DNA of 64,000 nt from NCBI GenBank assembly GCA_018238155.1, contig JABCTZ010000046.1:96001-160000 (forward strand), in the 5' to 3' direction. The notes beneath the pieces are model-generated. The model saw nothing but the letters and a program-made list of their open reading frames with translations, made no database searches and had not been told where the DNA came from. Shown here piece by piece: positions 4,571 through 39,033 of the stretch; within the stretch, counting starts at the first letter, position 1, and every line of letters begins with the position of its first letter. The DNA comes from Candidatus Heimdallarchaeota archaeon. GTDB taxonomy: Archaea; Asgardarchaeota; Heimdallarchaeia; JABLTI01. The position numbers and the translations under genes were made by a program.

Positions 4571-7500
4571 AATATTATCGATATCAATGGATCAGCTATA
4601 TCCAAAATTCATGCAGTAGAAATTGCGGAAGCAGATCAAGATAGCTATAACTTTTTTGAAATTCTTATGTTATCACAATTTTCATCAAATGATTCAATCT
4701 CTTCTACAGGACTGCAAATTTTTGAATCTTTTTCAACTGTAACTGATGACTATATTTATGATAATCCAACATATAGTGATGATGATTTACCTGGAGCTTC
4801 ACATTCAAATACCTTTGATAGTTTTGGTCATACGATTATTGTTGACGATGTTGATAATGATGGTATACACGAAACGATTATTGTTGGAAAAGATTATCTG
4901 AAAATATTTGGCTATGATACTTTCAATGATACGGCAATTCCATTAGTTTTGGATATCAATGATGAAACATACCCATTAATGGGTGGAGGTGCAGGAGTCT
5001 TTGATATAGATGGGGATTCCTATAATGAATTAATTGTTGGTTGTAATAATGGTACAACTTTGATTTATCAAATTGCTGATTTAAATTCCAATGATGCAAT
5101 TGAGGATTTATTAGCTATCACGGAATGGAAAGGTGATTTAGGTACCATGCCAGGTAAAAGAGGTTCAATAATAGGTTTGGATGTTGATGGAGATGGAGTA
5201 GATGAAGCAATTATTGGTGACCAATTTGGTCAAATAATCGTTCTAGGTTTAGGTGAATTGCCGACTTTTTCAATTACTTCTCCAATTGAGGGATATACTT
5301 CTAATCAAGAAACTATCTTATTTGAATGGGAAACCTCAAATGATACTTTGCCAATAATGTTCTACGAAATTTACATTAATGCTACATTTTCTTTAAGAGT
5401 TGGTGGAGCTCAAACTGGTGCAGTGATTCCTCTAGAACTGGGGAGCAATTCTATAACCATTGTTTGTACAGATATTCAAGGTAAAACTGATTCAGACAGT
5501 CGAATAGTGATATATAATGTAGGAGCACCAGTAATCGAAATAACAAAACCCGAGAACGGCTATTTGACAGATCAATCATCTATTACCATTTATTGGGTTG
5601 CATTTGATCCTCAATCAGATATACTGACGTATGAAATATATGCTAATGGTACTCTTAAAGGAACACCAACAACGTCACTACATACTTTTATTTTAGATTC
5701 AGAAGGTATTTGGAATATTACTATAATTGCAGATGATGGAGCTGGTGATAGAGTAAAAGATATGATTTATGTTATTTTTGACCGAACAGGTCCAGTCATC
5801 ACTATTACTTTACCTGCAGATGATTCTTTTGTAAGTACCGATTCAATTCATCTTCAATGGTCAGCACATGATGAGTTTACTTCTATTGATTATTATGAAA
5901 TTTATCGTGATGGATTTCTACAAGGAAATACAACATCGAAATTTTATGATGTCGATATTGCAGTAGATAAGATATATACTTTAGAAGTAATAGCCTATGA
6001 TGTTTTAGGCAATTATGATTCAGATTCAATCCAGATTACTCGAGATATGATCAACCCTTTTGTTTCCTTAGAAGCTTTAAGCTATCCAACAAATTATGAT
6101 GGTTGGTATGTTACTGATTTGGGTGATTTATTTATTGAATGGAATGGTACTGACACAGGAAGTGGCATAGACTATTTTGATGTCTTAGTAAATGATGAAC
6201 AATATGGCATCTATCCAGCTACTGCTGAGAACGACACAGTTACTCTAACAGAAGGACCAAATGATGTTGAAATAATTGCCTATGATAAAGCAGGTAACTC
6301 AGCCTCTGCTTATTACATTGTTGCTTATGATGTATCGAATCCTCTAGTAACGATTATTTCTCCAGAGAACAATCACTTAACTAGTGCAGAAAATGTAACC
6401 GTTTTCTGGGATGCTTCAGATGTAAGTTCTGGATTAAAAGAAATTTCCGTTATTGTTGACGGTTTCATTCAAGCTACTTTTACAGATTCTTCAATTAATT
6501 CATATTTAGTCAATATCTCTGAAACAAAAATTTACTCCATAACCATTCAAGTCATAGATTTTCTAGATAATTTAGCAGAAGACACTATTAATGTTGAACA
6601 TGACCCTATTTCACCAATTTTAATTGTAACTAGTCCATTAGCTGAAACTAGTTTTATCAATTCAACTTATGTAGAAGTATCTTGGGAAACTATAAACATC
6701 TCCCCAGATGAATTCGCCGTTTTTATTAATGGAACAGCTTACAATTATACTGCAACCATTTTTGATGCTATTATCAATTTAGAAGACGTATTTGGAACAA
6801 TTGATGAAAATACGTATCCAAAAGTGAATATAACTGTAGTAGCTGTTATCGGTGGCCAATATCAATATCCTAATACAAAATATGTTACTGTTGATTTAAA
6901 GAGCCCACTTGTAGCCATTAGCTCTCCTATTAATTTTGCAACGATTTCTGATGATTCAGTTGTGATAACTTGGACAGGAAGCGATATTGGTTCTGATATC
7001 AGTAGTTATACATTATGGGTAAATGATACATTAATTGGCAGCTGGGATAAGACGATTACTGTACGAGAGATAAATGTTGAAAGTTATTCTGATGGAGTAT
7101 ATATGATAATACTGGAAGGTCGAGATTTCGCGGGTAATGGTTTTAATTCAATCATTTACATCAATCTTTTCTCATCTGATCCTGAATTCACTCTTAATAT
7201 CCCAATTTCGTTACTAACTAATGACCCAAGTTTCCCATTCATAATCTCAATTACTAATCCTAGTTCAGGCATACAAGAAGTATCTGTTTTAGCAGATAAT
7301 TCAGAAATTGTTTATTATATCAATTACAATGAGAGTTATCAAGTTAATCATTTTGATATTGCGATTAATGTAGAAGAAATGAATTTTGTTTCACCAACAA
7401 ATGAACACAATTTAACAATAACAATATATGATCGTGGTGGACGAAGTGCAACTACAATAGTAAATGTTATTGTTGATAAGGAGAATCCAAATATAATCGA

Positions 7501-8623
7501 TCCAATAATTGATAGCACTTTACTAGGTCCTTATGGATTTACTATTGAAATTTCAGAAAATAGAACGGATACACATAATTTTACTTTGAAAACAACAGAT
7601 TCAAGTGGAATCCAACAAGCCAATTTACTCATCTTTAATGAAAACTACAGTTTCTCTTACATGATGACATTAGACACCGAATTTGTATCTTCTACTTTGT
7701 TTAAATTTGATGCATCCGTTAATTTTGATGATTACATTGCAGTAGTATATAGTATACAAATATCGATTACAGATAACGCTGGTAATACACATTCACAAAC
7801 ATATCAGTTACAAATCATTTTAGAAGAACAACAAATTATTTCAACACCACCAACTAGCCCTGGAGAGGTGAATCAGTGGTTAAAAGATAATCTCTTTACC
7901 ATTGTCATCCCAAGCGCTGCAGGATTACTATTAATGCTCATTTTAGCAATTATCATTTCTGTTGCAATTCGTAAGAGAGGAGTAAATCATGGTTGGCGTG
8001 ATGTTGTTAAAGCAGTCGCATATGTTACCAAAACTGGATTAACTGTCGCATATGTTCGGTACACTGAAGATATATACACTGATGAACAACTGTTTGGCGG
8101 TGCATTAACTGGTATTGTAGGTATCTTGGGAGAAATAACAGGTGAAGAAGAAGTTACTATGAAAGTTCAAACGATGGAATACGGTGGTAAACGTCTTCTT
8201 GTTTGTTCAGGAATTTTTGGAAACGCTATTCTATTAGCAAGTGAAACAAAACCCATTTTGAAAGAATTACTCAAAAAGTTCATTCTCGAATTTGAATTAA
8301 CTTACAAGTTTAATCTTGCTCAAGATATGCTTGATTTAAATGATTATGAGGCTGCTCCCTTAATGGTTGAAAGTTACTTTGGAGTGGGAATTGAGAATAT
8401 TAGAAATGATCAAGAAGCTCCTCTTACAATGGAAGATTTTGATCAAAACACCTCTGATTTTTCTCTTTCAGAGGTGCATATTGAAGAAAACTCTGAAGAA
8501 TTATCAACGAACTATAATCAAACAACTGAAACCTTAGATGAAACTCTTCCTGCTGAAGAAGTAGAACATGGTGAATCTTTTGATAATAATCAAGATTCAT
8601 TTGATGAAAACAATAATGAGTAA
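4571..8623 (+). pseudogene. 5'-truncated paralog of the FG-GAP/Ig-repeat single-pass surface protein with cytoplasmic longin-like domain (ORF 4667-8623)
   Basis: Collinear with 9045-14567 from propeller blade 4 onward. In-frame homology continues upstream of the ATG (KIHAVEIAEADQDSYNFFEIL) to a TAG at 4568-4570. No signal peptide. About 9 Ig-like repeats, a TM helix, a longin-like domain and an acidic tail follow. Confidence 0.65.
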
Positions 8624-8658
8624 ATGAAATACAAAACGTATTTCATATTACTTTTTTT
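8624..8658 (+). terminator. Hairpin plus T-tract terminator
   Basis: ATGAAATAC-aaaac-GTATTTCAT (8624-8646), then T7, directly after the stop at 8623. Confidence 0.6.
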
Positions 8659-8887
8659 AAAAGTTCTTCGCAAGCTTTCTCACAGAATCCATTGATGCCA
8701 AATCGGCAACCATTAATTCTACTGCCGAATTTCCGCTTGAACTTTTAATTTCCTCTACTTCTTCTTTTCCTTTTGTGGCATCTCGACATACGAGAATTAC
8801 TTTTGCATTCATTTCCGCAAGCTCTTGGGCAACTGCTTTTCCGATTCCAGAATTAGATCCAGTAACCATACAAATTTGGTCTTTCAT
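8657..8887 (-). pseudogene. Truncated short-chain dehydrogenase/reductase (N-terminal Rossmann fragment only)
   Basis: MKDQICMVTGSNSGIGKAVA…ADLASMDSVRKLAKNF* has TGxxxGIG but stops after ~76 aa, before the NNAG and YxxxK motifs. Confidence 0.75.
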
Positions 8888-9044
8888 AATAAATACCATC
8901 AATCTTCTTTCAAATAACCAAGATTTCAAATCATTTAACAAAATAAAACCATTAAAGTTGTCGGTCAAAAACAAATGTGAATAATCTATAGAAATTTTCA
9001 ATATGAGTGTTAGATTGATTCACTTTTTTCATTTTTGAGAGAAA

Positions 9045-12000
9045 TCAGATATCAGACCATTTTTCAGCTATCTCATTGAACCAAATTTTAGTTGAATTTT
9101 CAATTGCTTGCTTCAACCTAAAATTGTTATTTTGTCGTCCTGCATCAATAGCTACTCTTATTTCATTGGTAATTGTTCTCATATTTTCAATAAACAACTG
9201 TAATTCAAAATTCGTTCTCTCTAATTGACGTATTAAATCTAAATCCATAATCACAGATTGTAAATGAAAATCTGCCTCATCAAAATTCTGTTCGGTTAAT
9301 GCAATTATTATAGTAGGAGTAGATGAGATTATTTTCATAAGACTTCTATTTGCTTCTCGAGATAATTGGCTTACTAGATGATCTATAGGGGAATCACTTT
9401 TATGAATTAAATCAAAATCTTTCTTATCCTTTTCAGTTGAATGGGTTACTTCAGGTTCAATATCATTGATAACATTTTGTAATTGATTTGTAATTCCAGC
9501 TTCTGGGGTTATCTCTTTTACTGAGCCAAAGATTTTTTCTACAAGTTCTTCACTACCAGAAAATGAACTACTATCCACAAAGTATAGATTTTCCAATGCA
9601 TTAGAATATTTCTTGACAAATTTGTTGTCAAATTTCTTTAGCAATTTTACATGTATTGGTTTAACTTGATTAACCATTAAAACACTAATCCCATGTTCAC
9701 CTAAGAAAAGAAACATTGTTTTGTCACCTAATTCCAAAGTTTCGATTGTTCCTTTCAGCTTCCGTCCTGAAATTTCTGTAAGCATACTTTGAATTGCTAC
9801 CATTGCACCGCCAATCAATTGTTCTTCTTGAATCAATTTAGTAACATAGTTGACACTAACACATGTTAGTCCGGTCTTCTTAACATATAGCACGGCAATA
9901 ATTTCTTCTCGCCAGTTTTTGTTTTGTATTGGTCCTCTAGTTACCGCTGCTAATAATATTGAAATAATTACGAATCCACTAATCCCTATGGAAAGATAGA
10001 GAGCATTATTTCCTTGTTGCAACCATGAATTACCTGCTTCTGGAACAATTGCCAAATTGTATGATAAACTTTGATTATTGCCTGCAAAATCAAATGTGGT
10101 GAAAATAATTGTATATTCACCTATTTCAAAATCAGCCAAACTTAGATTTAGAGAGTAAATTGCAATCTGAACTCCTTCTGTTTCAGTAATCATATCATAT
10201 GTTACAGATGAATCATCACCAAGAATAGTCATTGTAACTCCATCTAGCCCAAAATTATCTGTAACCGTTATTAAGATGGATAGAATCTTTTCGCTTCCAT
10301 TTAGTACTTCCAAACCATCTGCGGTCAATAATACAGAATTGATTGTAATATCAGGTAGTATTGTTGGTGCTTCTGTGTCGATATTAATAATATATAATTG
10401 AATCAATTCACGATTGTAATAATCAAGTACTGCAACTTCAAGTTCGTGGCTATCATCAAATCCGATAAATGATGATACATTAAAATCATATGAAATGGTA
10501 AATGACTCATTTCGTATTGATAGTTCATAATTCTCATTTACTATTTCATCATTATCTAACAATATGATTAAACCCTTTACACCGGATTGTGTATCTGTTA
10601 TCGTAAACTCAAATTGGAAATCACCATCTTGTGTATAATAAATAGTAGGGATATTTGCTTCATAGTCAGGCATTAAGATATTCAGAAGTAGTGTGATATT
10701 ACTAGTAACCCTGTTAGAAGCCAAATCTAAAACTTCAACAGTTATTAATTGTTCTCCATCTTCCTCATCAAATATTAGATAGAAATAATTCTTATCACAA
10801 GAGCAGAAATTAAGATATTGACCATTTATCAAAATTCTGTAACTATATACACCTGATCCTTGATCATTTGCTGTCCACTGAATATAAACAATATCTTGGA
10901 AATAAGTAGTATAATTTGTTGGAGTAGTTATTATAACTGTAGGTTCAGATTGATCCACAATTATCCATTTTGTATCTGAAATATTGTTACTCAATGTCTG
11001 AATAATAATTGTTAGATTAAAGAGAGGATATTCATCAATTGCGATATCACCCAAATCAATAACAGTATTTCTTGTTGAAATCTCACTAATAGTTTGATTA
11101 AGTATCTCGTTAACATAAATACAGTATGAAATGAAATTTTGAATATTTGATACATCCCATTCAATTGAAATTTGTGAATCAGAAATGTAAGATAAATTTG
11201 CTTGTGGTGTAACCAACGCAATTGAAGGGAGTGTAGAATCTTGAGTTACAGTAATCGTATCATTAAATGCGTAACCGTAAAGATCAACTACACCAATAAT
11301 TATCGAGGATGTGTGATCAAGGGCTAAAGGAACAATTGTGGTAGTTACTAGTGGATTACTTATTATTTCAATTAATATATTATCAACATAGATATTATAT
11401 TCAGATATTCCAGAACCAGTATCATTACTATACCAATTAGCAATAAAATAATCCAAACCAGTTGTGAAACCTGTTTCGGGAGAAATAATCTCAAGATAAG
11501 GAATAGTATTATCAACAAAAATGATGATATGATCAGAATCAATATTTCCTGCTAAATCATAAGTAGTTACAATGATATCTTTAACTCCTTCATTTTCTAC
11601 TGAAAATGTAGTTGTTGTTGCACCTATACCAGAATATTTTGTTTGTTGATCAACAACCACTTCAGTATGGTGAATACCTGTACCACCAATATTATCCTCT
11701 GCATCCCAATTAATAGTAATTTGATCTGATGAAGTTTTATAGCCATCAATTGGATCAGTAATCGAAATTGATGGTTTTGCTGTATCCTTCACAATTGTAA
11801 TAGAATCTATTCTTGAATTACTTAATTGATCGTATGCAGTTACTCGTAAACTGTATGTTTTATCTGTATCCAATGCTACCAATTGTGAAAGTGTGGAAGT
11901 AGTTGCATACACTTGTCCATCTTTTTCTATTACAAAATGTGATAAACCACTAAGAGCATCAGATGCTGACCATTGCATCTCAATTATTGCTAGTTTCATT

Positions 12001-21371: not shown

Positions 21372-22508
21372 ATGGATGAAAACAAATACATACATTTAGT
21401 TGTTAAAGAAGAACCTCTTGGAGGATTCACAATATCTAACGCTCTAAGAGTTTTATGGCAAAATAAATTCAGAATACATATTAAATATTGGCCTCGATTT
21501 TGGTATGCATTACTCATAATCTGGTTAACAGCACCATTAGGATGGATTGAGAGAATACGTTTTAACAGAAAGATTAAGAAAACAAAAATAAAAACAGATC
21601 CATTATTTATTATTGGTCATTATAGAACTGGAACAACATATCTTATCACATTGCTTGCTCATGATAAAAATAAAGGGTATGTATCCAATTTAGAAGCTTA
21701 TGCACCTCATTACTTCTTGGCATTTGCGAAATTTACTAAGAGTCTTTTAGATTTCTCATTACCAGAAAGTAGACCAATGGATGATGTAATAATGGGAAGC
21801 GATGAGCCAACAGAAGAAGAGTATGCAATTGGTGCAACAGACAAATTCGGATTCTATAATGGATTCATTTTCCCAAAGAATTTCAAACTATATTCTCAAT
21901 ACAATTCCTTTGACAAATGTCCTCCAAAGGACCTGGTGAATTGGAGAAAAAGATATGATTATTTTGTTAAGAAGATGACTTTAAAGTATGATGGAAAAAT
22001 GCTTTTCCTAAAAAATCCTGCAAACACATACAGATTGAAAACGATTTTAGACATGTATCCAAATGCTAAATTCATCCACATTTATCGAAATCCCTACGAA
22101 ATGTATTCTTCAACAGTAAGATTTTTCAGAGAAGTATTTGCAATTTACGCTTTGCAAACATGGAAAGATGAAGATTTACAAGAAGGGATTTTGGAAAATT
22201 ACAAAGAAATGTATGAAAAATTCAATGTGGACCGACATTTGATTCCTAAAGAAAATCTCGTAGAAATTCAATATGAAGAATTTCTTAAGAAACCAATGCA
22301 CTTTATTGAGAAGGTTTACAAGGATTTACGAATTGATGGATTTGAAGAAGCTAAAGATAGATTCGCCAATTATGTTGAATCTCAAGCATCGTATAAACCA
22401 AACAAACACACCATATCTGATGATATAATTACTCGAGTTAACAAACACTGGGATTTCATCAGAGAGCAACACGACTATAAGAAATTAGAACCTAATAATC
22501 AAAAATGA
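21372..22508 (+). CDS. PAPS-dependent sulfotransferase, tandem paralog
   Basis: GHYRTGTT, LKNPANT and YRNPYEMYSS. Start set at ATG 21372 (MDENKY) from alignment with the paralog and an upstream AGGTGG. Confidence 0.9.
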   Translation: MDENKYIHLVVKEEPLGGFTISNALRVLWQNKFRIHIKYWPRFWYALLIIWLTAPLGWIERIRFNRKIKKTKIKTDPLFIIGHYRTGTTYLITLLAHDKNKGYVSNLEAYAPHYFLAFAKFTKSLLDFSLPESRPMDDVIMGSDEPTEEEYAIGATDKFGFYNGFIFPKNFKLYSQYNSFDKCPPKDLVNWRKRYDYFVKKMTLKYDGKMLFLKNPANTYRLKTILDMYPNAKFIHIYRNPYEMYSSTVRFFREVFAIYALQTWKDEDLQEGILENYKEMYEKFNVDRHLIPKENLVEIQYEEFLKKPMHFIEKVYKDLRIDGFEEAKDRFANYVESQASYKPNKHTISDDIITRVNKHWDFIREQHDYKKLEPNNQK

Positions 22509-35374: not shown

Positions 35375-36334
35375 GTGAGTTTCCTAAGAAGATTAATCAG
35401 TGCCGATAAAAAGAAAAGCGGTGAGGATATAAGCTCAAAACAACACGTAGCAATAATAGGACTAGACGCAGCAGGGAAAACAACAATAGTAAAAAGAATA
35501 CTGCGGTCAGAATATACGCTGTCAAAACCAACGTTTGGAGTAAATATCGAAGTTTACAGATATAGAACATTGGAATTCATCGTTTGGGATTTAGGTGGTC
35601 ACGCCCCGATTCGCAAGACTCTTTGGAAGAAGTTTGTTACAAAAGCTCAGACTATTGTTTTTGTTGTTGATGCTTCTGATCAGAAGAGATTTCAGTTAGC
35701 CAAAGATGTTTTCTATGAAACTTTAGAAAACACTGATCCCAAAGCTCCTGTTCTTTTCTTGGCTAATAAATCTGATAAAGAAGATGCTGCCTCTTCTGTT
35801 GAGGTTATGGAAGCTTTAGATCTTCAACAAATGATTCGTCTTGATCGTCCTTTTAACATGTTTCGTTGCTCTGCTCTTACTGGCGAAGGTTTATTTCCCG
35901 CCTGGGATTGGTTAGTTGATATTGGAGCCAAGGATCAAGCTATTCCCACTTGGCATGTCAAAATCTTTTCAGCAGTTGTTTTTGATTCAAATGGTAAAGA
36001 ATTGGATCAATGCATTTTTGGCAATCCTACTCAACAAGCAAATGTTGCCACAGCTTATCGTGAATCTATAAGAGAAACTGAACGCTTTGCTAAACAAATG
36101 CGTGATTATAACGAAGCAGTTACTGTTCTTGAGATAATGAAAAATTATCAACTAGTGATTACTAAGAATAAGCTCTTTGTAATGGGTGTATTAATTGATG
36201 TCAATGACCCCGTTAGTAGAGTTTTAACAATTTCTAGCAGAATTTTCGAAGCAATTGAGATGGAATATCTTAAAGGTTTAAGTATTTCACTTCAAGAAGT
36301 TATCTCTAATTATTTTCCATTAGACTCTATTTAG
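35375..36334 (+). CDS. Arf-family small GTPase fused to a C-terminal longin/roadblock-like domain
   Basis: G1 GLDAAGKT, G2 PTFG, G3 WDLGGH, G4 ANKSD, G5 CSALTGEGL, and a ~120-aa beta-beta-alpha-beta-beta-beta-alpha tail. Confidence 0.9.
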   Translation: MSFLRRLISADKKKSGEDISSKQHVAIIGLDAAGKTTIVKRILRSEYTLSKPTFGVNIEVYRYRTLEFIVWDLGGHAPIRKTLWKKFVTKAQTIVFVVDASDQKRFQLAKDVFYETLENTDPKAPVLFLANKSDKEDAASSVEVMEALDLQQMIRLDRPFNMFRCSALTGEGLFPAWDWLVDIGAKDQAIPTWHVKIFSAVVFDSNGKELDQCIFGNPTQQANVATAYRESIRETERFAKQMRDYNEAVTVLEIMKNYQLVITKNKLFVMGVLIDVNDPVSRVLTISSRIFEAIEMEYLKGLSISLQEVISNYFPLDSI

Positions 36335-36483
36335 AGTCTTTTTTCATTTATCTCTTCTTCAAAATCTTTATTTTGTGTTATTGATAATATATACCGATAA
36401 GCATTTATTTGGTACTACAATTCATCAATATGAGAGCACTTTTTGTTTATTGAAAAATCAAGGATGAGAATGGACGTAGTAAT

Positions 36484-37449
36484 ATGAAGGCATCAAAAAA
36501 AGCGATTGAATCATTTGCAAAATACTTGAGCAAGGATAATCATAAAGTTCCTTGGGTGCTTCTTATTGGTGAGAAAGGTTCTGGAAAAACAACTGCACTT
36601 TATTATCTCCTTTCTTCAAACAGAGACAAAATCTTTCCTGACACAGTCCTTAATTGGATTGATATTTCTTATGGTCAAGAGTGGTTTAAGCTCATCGATA
36701 TTGGAAATGAGATTTTAAACGATGAGAGTGTAATTGATTATTTTCTTTCAATTGCAGATGGCATTGTCTACGTTTTGAATGGAGAATCCGATGAGTCTCT
36801 TAGAAAATCTGTTGAACCCTTCCATGCTATTGTGGAGAAGATACCTTCTAATGTTCCCTTACTAACATTAGTGAACAAAAAAAGCCCTGAAAATAAAGTT
36901 AATCTTAGCCGAGTTTTAAGTTATTTTAATTTAGCTAAAATTTCTTCTCCAACGGACCCTCGTTCCTTTCATTTCGAAATTTGCACTATTTTGACTGGAG
37001 AAGGCATTTATCGTGGATTTGATTGGTTTATTTCAAAACTAATGCACTACGAAGGTTATCATGAGTATGTCACTATCCACCGTGTGTTAATTTATGATGT
37101 TAATGGCTTACTTGACTTTGATGCCCAGTTCTCAAATATCATGGATGATACGCAAGATGCTGTTCTTATAACAGGTTTGCTTTCTGCATTAAATTCAATG
37201 ACCAGGACACTCTTCAAAGATTCAAGTTTCTTGGATGTTGTAACTGTAGGTGATTATTCTATGGTTCTTGTTTCTCGCAATCAAAAGATCTGTTGCCTTT
37301 TTGTTGAACGAGGTGGAGCTATTGGTAAAGCAAAACAAATTGCTGAAATGATATTAGATATTTTCCTCATTGAGGGCGAGGAAGGAAGACTTGCTATTGA
37401 GAACCTTATTGATGAAAGTAAAAATAGTGATGAAACAATATCCGTTTGA
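36484..37449 (+). CDS. Degenerate Arf-like GTPase fused to a C-terminal longin/roadblock-like domain
   Basis: G1 GEKGSGKT, altered G3 (DIGN), altered G4 (NKKS), CTILTGEGI..GFDW, and tail VLIYDVNGL…DAVLITGLLSALNSM. Confidence 0.8.
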   Translation: MKASKKAIESFAKYLSKDNHKVPWVLLIGEKGSGKTTALYYLLSSNRDKIFPDTVLNWIDISYGQEWFKLIDIGNEILNDESVIDYFLSIADGIVYVLNGESDESLRKSVEPFHAIVEKIPSNVPLLTLVNKKSPENKVNLSRVLSYFNLAKISSPTDPRSFHFEICTILTGEGIYRGFDWFISKLMHYEGYHEYVTIHRVLIYDVNGLLDFDAQFSNIMDDTQDAVLITGLLSALNSMTRTLFKDSSFLDVVTVGDYSMVLVSRNQKICCLFVERGGAIGKAKQIAEMILDIFLIEGEEGRLAIENLIDESKNSDETISV

Positions 37450-37542
37450 GGAATTTTTATTAAGGACGAGTTATGTTTTAATTAAACTAGAAAGCAAGAG
37501 AAAGAAGATTAGAAACTAATAATTAATGGAAGAAGATTTGAT

Positions 37543-38346
37543 ATGGTAGGAATTGAATCACAGAAGGAGCATTTACTTGGGATTGTTTTTGTGACATTTG
37601 AAGATACAGGTCCAGCTGTCCCGTATAATGATACTCCACTTACTGATGAACAGACACTCACATTAGCAGTAGAAGGTATGACAATTGTAGGTCTTGATGA
37701 AGGTTCTTCAGGAAAGACTATGGAAGAAAAGAAAAACCAAATGTTTGATACTATGGATGATAAAAAGTCATTTGGTCCTCTCCCAGTTCCGGGCGAACCA
37801 ACTTTTCGAGCAATGGCAATTACCTTTGATGTTGAAGCAGAGGCTTCATCAGACAATAGAATTCAAGAATTCGGAAGAAAATGCATTCTCTTCTTACTCT
37901 TTAAGGAAGACTATACTCGAGAGATTCTTGATGCTTATGGACTTATTAAACCCTATTTCTCAGTAATTGTACGAGATATCACTTCTGAAAAAGATTTAAC
38001 ATTCGCGAACCTCCAAGAGCTTTCAAAGAAAATGGGTATGCTCTTTTCTGGAAAACTTCCACGAATCTTCACCCTCTTAGAAGATGGCTCACCTAAAGAA
38101 TTAATTGGTAAAAAGATACCTGCTGGCGACGTTTTCTTAGTTGCTGATAAAAATAAATGTACTCTTTCCATTCTCTTCTATCACCCTGACCCTACTGTTT
38201 GGCGGAGAAGGCAAATATACAAAAGTGCTTCAGAGCTGAACTCGAGTGTTTTTAGAAATAAACTTAAAGTTATTTCAGTAACTGAAATTGCAGAAATGTC
38301 AAAAATACTTGATAGATTAAATGTTTCAATAGAAAAGATCCACTAA
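37543..38346 (+). CDS. Putative uDENN/longin-like domain fused to a gelsolin-like domain
   Basis: N-terminal GIVFVTFEDTGP…FGPLPVP…F.V……D.R…ILFLLF. C-terminal GDVFLVAD…L.I.F……RRQIYKSASEL. Confidence 0.55.
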   Translation: MVGIESQKEHLLGIVFVTFEDTGPAVPYNDTPLTDEQTLTLAVEGMTIVGLDEGSSGKTMEEKKNQMFDTMDDKKSFGPLPVPGEPTFRAMAITFDVEAEASSDNRIQEFGRKCILFLLFKEDYTREILDAYGLIKPYFSVIVRDITSEKDLTFANLQELSKKMGMLFSGKLPRIFTLLEDGSPKELIGKKIPAGDVFLVADKNKCTLSILFYHPDPTVWRRRQIYKSASELNSSVFRNKLKVISVTEIAEMSKILDRLNVSIEKIH

Positions 38347-38511
38347 GTTTTTTTAGCCGATTTTTTCTTCTCTTTCTCTTTTATTGTTTTTTTACCTAAA
38401 CTTTTTTATTTATGATAAAAATGAAATGCTTGAACGAATAGCTTTATATTTTAATAAATTACATTAAAAAACATTATAATTTAAACTTGGTGGAAATCTG
38501 GTGGAAGATTA

Positions 38512-39033
38512 TTGAGCAAAATAATAGCTAAAGTTGTTTTTGGTGGAGACGGAGGAGTTGGAAAAACAACTCTCATTCAGAGATACCTTACTGGAGAATT
38601 CATTGATACAACGAAGCTAACCATTGGTGTAGGTTTTCATATTCACCAAATGAGCTATCAAGAAAGAGATATTTCACTTTCTGTTTGGGATTGCGGTGGG
38701 CAAGAACAATTCAAACAAATGGGCATTTTCGATAATTACTTTCGAGGAGCACTTGTAGCTATCTTAATGTTTGATTTAACAAGAGCACTTTCTGTTAAAG
38801 GATTAGATACATGGTATGATTTTGTTGATAAAAATTCTAAGACATCCATTATTCTTGTTGGTGGTAAAAGTGATCTTCCAAGAGATCCACTTCTAGATGA
38901 AGATGTAATTGCAGAAACAATAAAACAGTATGAAGCCATTCGTTATGTTGAGACTTCTGCATCAAATGGTTTAGGAGTAAACCTCGTTTTCAATGAAATC
39001 GCTCGTTTATCATTGGATAAAATTCCAAAATAG
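38512..39033 (+). CDS. Rab/Ras-like small GTPase
   Basis: GDGGVGKT, TIGVGF, WDCGGQEQF, YFRGA, GKSD and ETSASNG. Confidence 0.92.
   Translation: MSKIIAKVVFGGDGGVGKTTLIQRYLTGEFIDTTKLTIGVGFHIHQMSYQERDISLSVWDCGGQEQFKQMGIFDNYFRGALVAILMFDLTRALSVKGLDTWYDFVDKNSKTSIILVGGKSDLPRDPLLDEDVIAETIKQYEAIRYVETSASNGLGVNLVFNEIARLSLDKIPK

Follow-up and report, generated by a model that had tools for sequence, protein, structure and literature searches.

Asgard archaea share a number of 'eukaryotic signature' components with eukaryotes, and longin domains and small GTPases rank among the main ones. In eukaryotes, longin proteins include VAMP7, Sec22b, Ykt6, the TRAPP subunits Bet5/Trs23, Fuzzy-Inturned, Mon1-Ccz1 and the AP sigma subunits. 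Longin SNAREs carry the longin domain in front of the SNARE motif and the tail anchor, and the other examples are soluble subunits. Dimers of longin and roadblock domains act as platforms for small GTPases, and Asgard archaea have expanded sets of longins and GTPase-longin fusions (PMC10933270, PMC4917890). Extensive domain shuffling has furthermore been published for these archaea (PMC4917890, PMC10933270, bioRxiv 10.1101/2020.10.19.343400). The Asgard longins described so far are either soluble or fused to a GTPase. Here, we analyse a gene for a giant receptor-like membrane protein of Candidatus Heimdallarchaeota archaeon, which lies at 9045..14567 on the minus strand of a stretch of 64,000 nucleotides (the window; contig JABCTZ010000046.1, positions 96,001 to 160,000). 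The protein has an adhesin-like ectodomain, a single transmembrane helix and a predicted cytoplasmic tail that starts with a longin-fold domain. In the open-access papers and preprints that could be searched, we found no description of a signal peptide, an ectodomain and a transmembrane helix fused to a longin.

The gene is an uninterrupted open reading frame (ORF) that translates into a type I membrane protein of 1840 amino acids; all coordinates within it are on the minus strand. Its tail comprises 297 amino acids, namely a longin-fold domain of ~140 residues, a linker of ~35 residues and a helical bundle of ~115 residues. The longin-fold domain and the juxtamembrane N-x-x-W motif in front of it occupy residues 1546-1690 (9498..9932). 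An exhaustive HMMER search against 1.84 billion protein representatives found only 44 relatives of the whole tail, 40 of which were aligned over the first ~145 tail residues (alignment A1). When AlphaFold2 (AF2) was given this alignment, the first ~140 tail residues were modelled with a predicted local distance difference test score (pLDDT) of 86.4 and a predicted template modelling score (pTM) of 0.81. The predicted structure is a five-stranded antiparallel sheet (strands 13-20, 25-30, 65-70, 73-79 and 83-89) with three helices (39-57, 94-116 and 123-137), in the order b1-b2-a1-b3-b4-b5-a2-a3 (bb-a-bbb-a-a). With this model, Foldseek reported longin or roadblock proteins in 50 of the 50 matches listed, including MglB, AP sigma subunits, TRAPP Bet5/Trs23, zeta-COP and Sec22b. 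The VIA search, which is independent of Foldseek, is led by the longin of VAMP7 (Z 12.3, 120 amino acids, root-mean-square deviation 3.5), and CPLANE (Z 11.8) and Sec22 (Z 11.6, 117 amino acids, root-mean-square deviation 2.8) score similarly. Asgard structures are also among its matches, with the Lokiarchaeal longin 8yqg (129 aligned amino acids) and the MK-D1 protein Roadblock3 both at Z 11.3.

By Z alone, the longin and the roadblock matches are nearly tied. Their coverage differs: the longin matches (Z 11.6-12.3) span model residues 12-141 and with them both C-terminal helices, whereas the roadblock matches end at ~113. Roadblock domains are defined by an N-terminal helix (PMC10933270). 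The AF2 model has only short helical turns (residues 4-12) before b1, and two helices follow b5. Because both C-terminal helices are covered and the N-terminal helix of roadblocks is missing, we assign the tail domain, on the basis of its predicted structure, to the longin fold rather than to the roadblock fold. A preliminary description of this gene, made from the sequence alone, had proposed a cytoplasmic longin-like domain of ~130 amino acids. The longin fold was borne out by the model and by the longin matches at Z 11-12; the longin part has ~140 residues, and the tail as a whole is more than twice as long as the domain noted there.

In sequence, the domain is far from the known longins. 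The best match of the A1 profile in the PDB is TRAPP Bet5 (E 0.01 and 0.027). The nearest Pfam longin models are Fuz_longin_1 (E 0.044) and Intu_longin_1 (E 0.14), each matched by one of the 40 A1 members, and a single member matches Robl_LC7 at E 1.9e-4, which is under the cut-off. The tail longin is a divergent sequence family for which no Pfam model exists that captures it. Its invariant and near-invariant positions in A1 are of the W, G, L, E and F types; among them, W9, E55 and E108 are near-invariant and of surface type. Prediction of a homodimer from two copies of the domain with A1 scored 0.02 against a mark of 0.42, a run without controls that counts neither for nor against dimerisation.

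The longin domain is followed by an acidic, poorly conserved linker of low pLDDT (residues 1691-1725, 9393..9497) and by a conserved C-terminal four-helix bundle (residues 1726-1840, 9048..9392). In an alignment of 21 relatives, the last 115 residues form this bundle and end in I-W-F-x-E-I-A-E-K-W. AF2 modelled the full 297-residue tail poorly when no alignment was given (pLDDT 43), and the C-terminal ~110 residues came out as four helices with a pLDDT of 60-80. For the bundle, fold and profile searches yielded no family, and their matches were limited to designed proteins and generic helical bundles.

The protein has only two segments of sufficient hydrophobicity for a membrane helix, residues 9-35 and 1521-1547. 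The first belongs to a Lys-rich N-terminus (residues 1-39, 14451..14567) that is predicted to be a signal peptide or signal anchor; its layout is common to all full-length relatives, and a conserved [AG]-H-S motif comes next. The second contains the one transmembrane helix (residues 1521-1545, 9933..10007), which is placed by hydropathy and by the counts of flanking Lys and Arg. Among 37 relatives, the 15 residues before this helix contain 16 Lys and Arg in total and the 15 residues after it contain 100. By the positive-inside rule, these counts place the tail in the cytoplasm, in agreement with the Lys-rich hydrophobic N-terminus and with the FG-GAP and Ig domains, which are typically extracellular. 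The longin domain begins ~ten residues past the helix, behind a near-invariant Trp. The preliminary description had also postulated a signal or anchor segment, one transmembrane helix and an intracellular tail; the two hydrophobic segments confirm the first two, and the charge distribution supports the third. On the extracellular side, a juxtamembrane motif P-W-[IF]-x-Q-G-x-N-L (10008-10050, minus strand, residues ~1507-1520) is conserved before the helix in most relatives.

When comparing the receptor tail to the eukaryotic longins named above, we find the same fold and the same order of strands and helices, with Z 10-12 over 117-123 aligned residues and an identity of 7-14%. Both are cytoplasmic and located at membranes, as far as the receptor is predicted to be. 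They differ in their position within the protein: the receptor longin is C-terminal to the transmembrane helix of a giant ectodomain and thus fixed to the membrane, and the receptor has no SNARE motif. Within the phylum, the longin and roadblock proteins and the Arf/Rag-like GTPase-longin fusions of Asgard archaea (PMC10933270; 8yqg, 9jue, 7f8m) belong to the same superfamily, whereas the receptor tails form a separate, long-branched clade.

The ectodomain consists of an N-terminal domain, a presumed propeller and a stalk. The N-terminal domain (residues 40-285, 13713..14450; ~245 amino acids) is conserved in all full-length relatives, with 36-46% identity among ten of them. The preliminary description had called it a DOMON/CBM9-like domain, which we reduce to a weak lead: its match to CBM9_1 scores 16.3 bits, below the cut-off of 23.4, and only one of ten family members matches at E < 0.1. 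Searches of the PDB returned nothing for the single sequence and nothing significant for the family profile, and the leads from a structural-atlas feature search were all <0.9. Next come seven repeats of the FG-GAP/VCBS type (residues 286-672, 12552..13712), which carry Ca-loop-like D-x-D-x-D-G motifs and presumably form a seven-bladed propeller. The curated model FG-GAP_3 (PF13517) is passed in three stretches (47.8 bits, cut-off 26.9, E 2.2e-12), and the seven loops lie at residues 300, 357, ~412, 466, 530, 583 and 638, with a spacing of 53-64 amino acids. The third loop is degenerate in the present protein and intact in the family consensus. The stalk (residues 673-1512, 10032..12551) has about nine Ig-like repeats. 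Seven of them are clear and recur every 88-95 amino acids, with starts at 664, 752, 843, 931, 1022, 1113 and 1208; two divergent repeats follow and extend to residue 1512. The curated model Big_7 (PF17957) is passed in five stretches (80.6 bits, cut-off 24.1, E 1.3e-22), and Glucodextran_B and Big_13 match below threshold. The counts of seven FG-GAP repeats and ~9 Ig-like repeats that had been proposed from the sequence are hence retained.

This layout had been likened to that of integrin alpha. The two indeed share type I topology, one transmembrane helix, and an Ig-like stalk that bears seven FG-GAP repeats with Ca-type loops at its membrane-distal end. However, the receptor stalk is of the Big_7 type and not a thigh/calf, there is an extra N-terminal domain, and the short GFFKR tail of integrin alpha contrasts with the folded 297-residue tail of the receptor. 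In the PDB, the family profile of the propeller matches CRTAC1 best (E 4e-9), followed by YesX (1e-4) and ITFG2 (2.5e-4), whereas the integrins alpha-V (E 0.14) and alpha-IIb (E 0.7) are not significant; a single-sequence search with the propeller gave no PDB match. The likeness to integrin alpha is therefore one of layout, with no significant sequence relation. The secreted CRTAC1 and the cytosolic ITFG2 (KICSTOR) have neither the stalk nor the transmembrane helix nor the longin tail of the receptor. Neither Integrin_beta (PF00362) nor the thigh/calf family Integrin_A_Ig_1 (PF08441) has a match in the 91%-complete genome, and the control genomes were silent for both models too.

The source genome (4.08 Mb in 46 contigs, ~32% G+C) contains four giant-type paralogues, including the convergent neighbour of the receptor gene at 4571..8623 on the plus strand, which is 5'-truncated in this assembly. 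In public records, the exact protein is present without a name and one paralogue is annotated as 'hypothetical protein'. A single-protein scan of the locus found one relative only, and this nearest named relative is a metagenome-assembled genome called 'Candidatus Heimdallarchaeota archaeon' (L013). Compared to the close orthologue, identity is 66% in the linker, 63-77% in the signal peptide, Ig repeats 8-9 and the transmembrane segment, and 83-88% in the other domains. A survey of Asgard genomes, which the preliminary description had called for, was run on 201 genomes that are each at least 80% complete. Tail-bearing ORFs of at least 1750 amino acids were found in the organism's own family only, where they occur in 12 of the 12 genomes searched with 3-5 copies each. 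The profile of the longin-like domain, in contrast, matches 197 of the 201 genomes. In another class (family f13, e.g. G094:C127:7183-7599), ORFs of ~770 amino acids align with A1 over its full module, juxtamembrane N-x-x-W motif included (E 1e-36 to 1e-41), and no Pfam family matches their ectodomains. This match dates the module of transmembrane helix plus longin to before the giant receptors.

Iterating the A1 profile in the source genome converges on ~39 proteins, of which 16 are tethered to the membrane. Besides the four giants, the tethered carriers include an FG-GAP/TSP3 protein with a transmembrane helix and a longin, proteins with 6-7 transmembrane helices and a longin, and proteins with a longin and four transmembrane helices. 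Other carriers are ~ten TPR-longin proteins of ~730 amino acids and standalone forms of ~140 amino acids. No standalone form matches any Pfam family; examples of carriers are C29:74475-77156, C41:178684-179862, C11:62743-63756 and C8:73640-75835. Other families of the class (L027, L028 and L029) have proteins of 860-880 amino acids with 10-12 predicted transmembrane helices and a terminal longin-like domain (A1 profile, E ~1e-19). We had expected these sister-family carriers of ~860 amino acids to share the build of FG-GAP, transmembrane helix and longin; instead, they turned out to be polytopic membrane proteins that match no Pfam family. Neighbours in the structural atlas include 376 Arf/Ras-fused proteins that form an Asgard cluster, and a longin cluster of the Fuz/Mon1 type.

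The window also contains Arf-like GTPase fusions (cluster 35375-39033). One of them, at 36484-37449 (Arf domain E 6e-15), has a C-terminal domain (37078..37446, plus strand) that is a distant member of the longin-like superfamily according to profile searches and hhalign. Among the 7704 ORFs of the genome, the A1 profile finds this fusion tail at E 6.6e-4, and after one profile iteration, before the tail was included, at E 6.9e-9. Aligning A1 with the orthologues of the fusion tail by hhalign gives a probability of 83.5% and E 8.3e-6 over 73 columns. The parallel between the two tails that the preliminary description had drawn is thus real, if distant, homology, and the hhalign register is exactly the one drawn there. 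BLASTP gave no match between the receptor tail and the C-terminal region of either fusion (36484-37449 and 35375-36334), and the profile does not detect the tail of the second fusion at 35375-36334. In a maximum-likelihood tree of the longin-like domains of the genome, the four giant-receptor tails group in a clade with 100/100 support, which has a long branch and lies apart from the fusion tail; the deep nodes of the tree are unresolved. The receptor belongs to a large Asgard-wide longin-like family, and fusions of this domain with Arf-like GTPases and with many other membrane proteins occur as well. With ~39 carriers in the genome, homology does not single out the pair of receptor and fusion.

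We suggest that the receptor is an adhesin-like protein whose longin offers a docking surface on the cytoplasmic side of the membrane, by which it recruits, or is recruited by, a cytosolic partner; we give this reading about an even chance. It combines the architecture and the fold described above with a mechanism that is taken from longin and roadblock domains elsewhere, which are membrane-proximal, bind GTPases or adaptors and are usually dimers (PMC10933270). Outside the cell, the N-terminal domain, the FG-GAP propeller and the Ig-like stalk would have the build of an adhesin or a ligand-binding receptor. A single helix would span the membrane, with the longin ~ten residues further on, then the linker and the four-helix bundle, so that the tail may keep the docking surface of the longin flat on the inner membrane face. 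The most plausible partners would be a small GTPase or another longin or roadblock protein, for which TRAPP, Mon1-Ccz1, Ragulator, SRX-SRbeta and MglB may serve as precedents.

Several observations weigh against such a docking receptor. The domain passes no curated Pfam cut-off for longins or roadblocks, and its membership rests on predicted structure. A1 contains no conserved Arg in the longin domain, which makes an Arg-finger mechanism as in the GTPase-activating proteins of the FLCN/NPRL2 type (PMC12290439) unlikely. We identified no cytosolic partner of the receptor, and found no small GTPase, roadblock or recurrent cytosolic gene beside any of the four paralogues; for the two other full-length paralogues, neither the contigs nor the surrounding 5 kb contain a GTPase match. 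The truncation of the neighbour in this assembly, moreover, suggests that receptor copies are dispensable.

The main alternative is a structural protein of the surface coat or an adhesin, in which the longin and the bundle would only anchor, oligomerise or sort the protein (e.g. to protrusions or membrane patches) and no GTPase signalling would take place. We regard this as possible, if rather doubtful. Giant Ig-stalked surface proteins in multiple copies are typically coat proteins or adhesins, and each genome has 3-5 paralogues; those of the present genome all lack a GTPase linkage. That the domain ends many unrelated polytopic and single-pass proteins would fit a general module for the handling of membrane proteins, and some longins, e.g. 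those of longin SNAREs, sort rather than control GTPases (PMC10933270). However, the tail is conserved like the ectodomain (85% compared to 82-88% identity to the close orthologue) and includes the near-invariant, surface-type residues W9, E55 and E108. Furthermore, both here and in other Asgard genomes, members of this domain family are joined directly to Arf-like GTPases. An ectodomain that serves as a surface-anchored carbohydrate-binding or carbohydrate-active module, for the capture of substrates rather than for adhesion or signalling, seems to us improbable. Weak hints towards it come from the sub-threshold matches to CBM9_1 in the N-terminal domain and to Glucodextran_B in the stalk, from a GH38 fragment and a sulfation module nearby, and from the PL11 lyases YesX and YesW, which the propeller profile matches at E 1e-4 to 1e-3. 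The latter matches span single FG-GAP repeats, which points to the repeat in common and not to a catalytic site. The top match CRTAC1 is non-enzymatic, and the CBM9 lead stays below its cut-off and is seen in one member of ten. A carbohydrate module would also leave the conserved tail unexplained.

The docking receptor could be given a more specific partner by assuming that it signals through longin-longin contact to the Arf-longin fusions of cluster 35375-39033, as the preliminary description had considered possible for the GTPase cluster. The tail of 36484-37449 is in the same domain superfamily, and longin and roadblock domains commonly pair (PMC10933270). The cluster lies 21 kb from the receptor gene and is not co-oriented with it, and there are 43 Arf-like matches in the 4.08 Mb of the genome, such that by a rough estimate the chance of an Arf-like match within 25 kb of any gene is ~40% anyway. 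Any of the ~39 carriers could make the same claim, the receptor tails have their own clade, and the tail of 35375-36334 went undetected. We found no evidence for this link and consider it very improbable.

The longin of the receptor is fixed under the membrane behind an adhesin-like ectodomain. Across the phylum, many further membrane proteins end in the same domain. Should a GTPase bind the tail, this would be the first link from a receptor to a GTPase among the prokaryotes most closely related to eukaryotes; without such binding, the fold would have had a GTPase-independent role in membrane proteins. The folded tail of ~300 residues is a clonable handle for fishing such partners. More broadly, and in our view speculatively and with little likelihood, the membrane proteins of Asgard archaea may include a general class with a longin platform as the cytoplasmic face. 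The giant propeller receptors would then act as outside-in or inside-out transducers between surface adhesion and Arf/Rag-like GTPases or the cytoskeleton, and they would be prokaryotic forerunners of GTPase platforms that are anchored in the membrane, e.g. Ragulator, SRalpha/SRbeta and longin SNAREs.

Lastly, we analysed the neighbourhood of the receptor gene. The product of the convergent gene at 4571..8623 is a paralogous receptor with its own transmembrane helix and longin tail (7970-8389; A1 profile E 3e-48) and without the four-helix bundle. It aligns with 76% identity to residues 453-1800 of the 1806-residue orthologue in L013, and thus lacks the first ~450 residues with the signal peptide, the N-terminal domain and blades 1-3. 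The truncation is either a real deletion, i.e. a pseudogene, or an assembly error. A gene with a GNAT domain lies upstream at a distance of only 77-173 bp. The convergent receptor pair recurs in four congeners (G005, G008, G009 and G010) and in L013, where the order of DAGK-like kinase, receptor, convergent receptor and GNAT-domain gene is preserved. We considered an alpha/beta-like heterodimer of the convergent pair and dropped it; at full length, the two paralogues have one and the same build (35% identity), and in this assembly the partner is truncated.

The two receptor genes are separated by 421 bp, within which lies an ORF of 114 amino acids (8657-9001, minus strand) that matches only positions 2-69 of the 195 positions of adh_short at E 7e-11. 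It looks like an inserted fragment of a short-chain dehydrogenase gene, because the orthologous gap in L013 is only 50 bp long. On the other side, a gene for a DAGK/YegS-type lipid kinase (14769-15677, plus strand) is divergent from the receptor gene at a distance of ~200 bp; this adjacency is present in L013 and absent at the other paralogues. The paralogue on contig 44 (L026:420-4679) is divergently paired with the gene of another large surface protein, an FG-GAP/PQQ-propeller protein of 1419 amino acids with TSP3 repeats. At 4 kb from the receptor gene, the window contains an ATP sulfurylase gene and two sulfotransferase genes (18190-22508, plus strand), the products of which could sulfate surface glycans.

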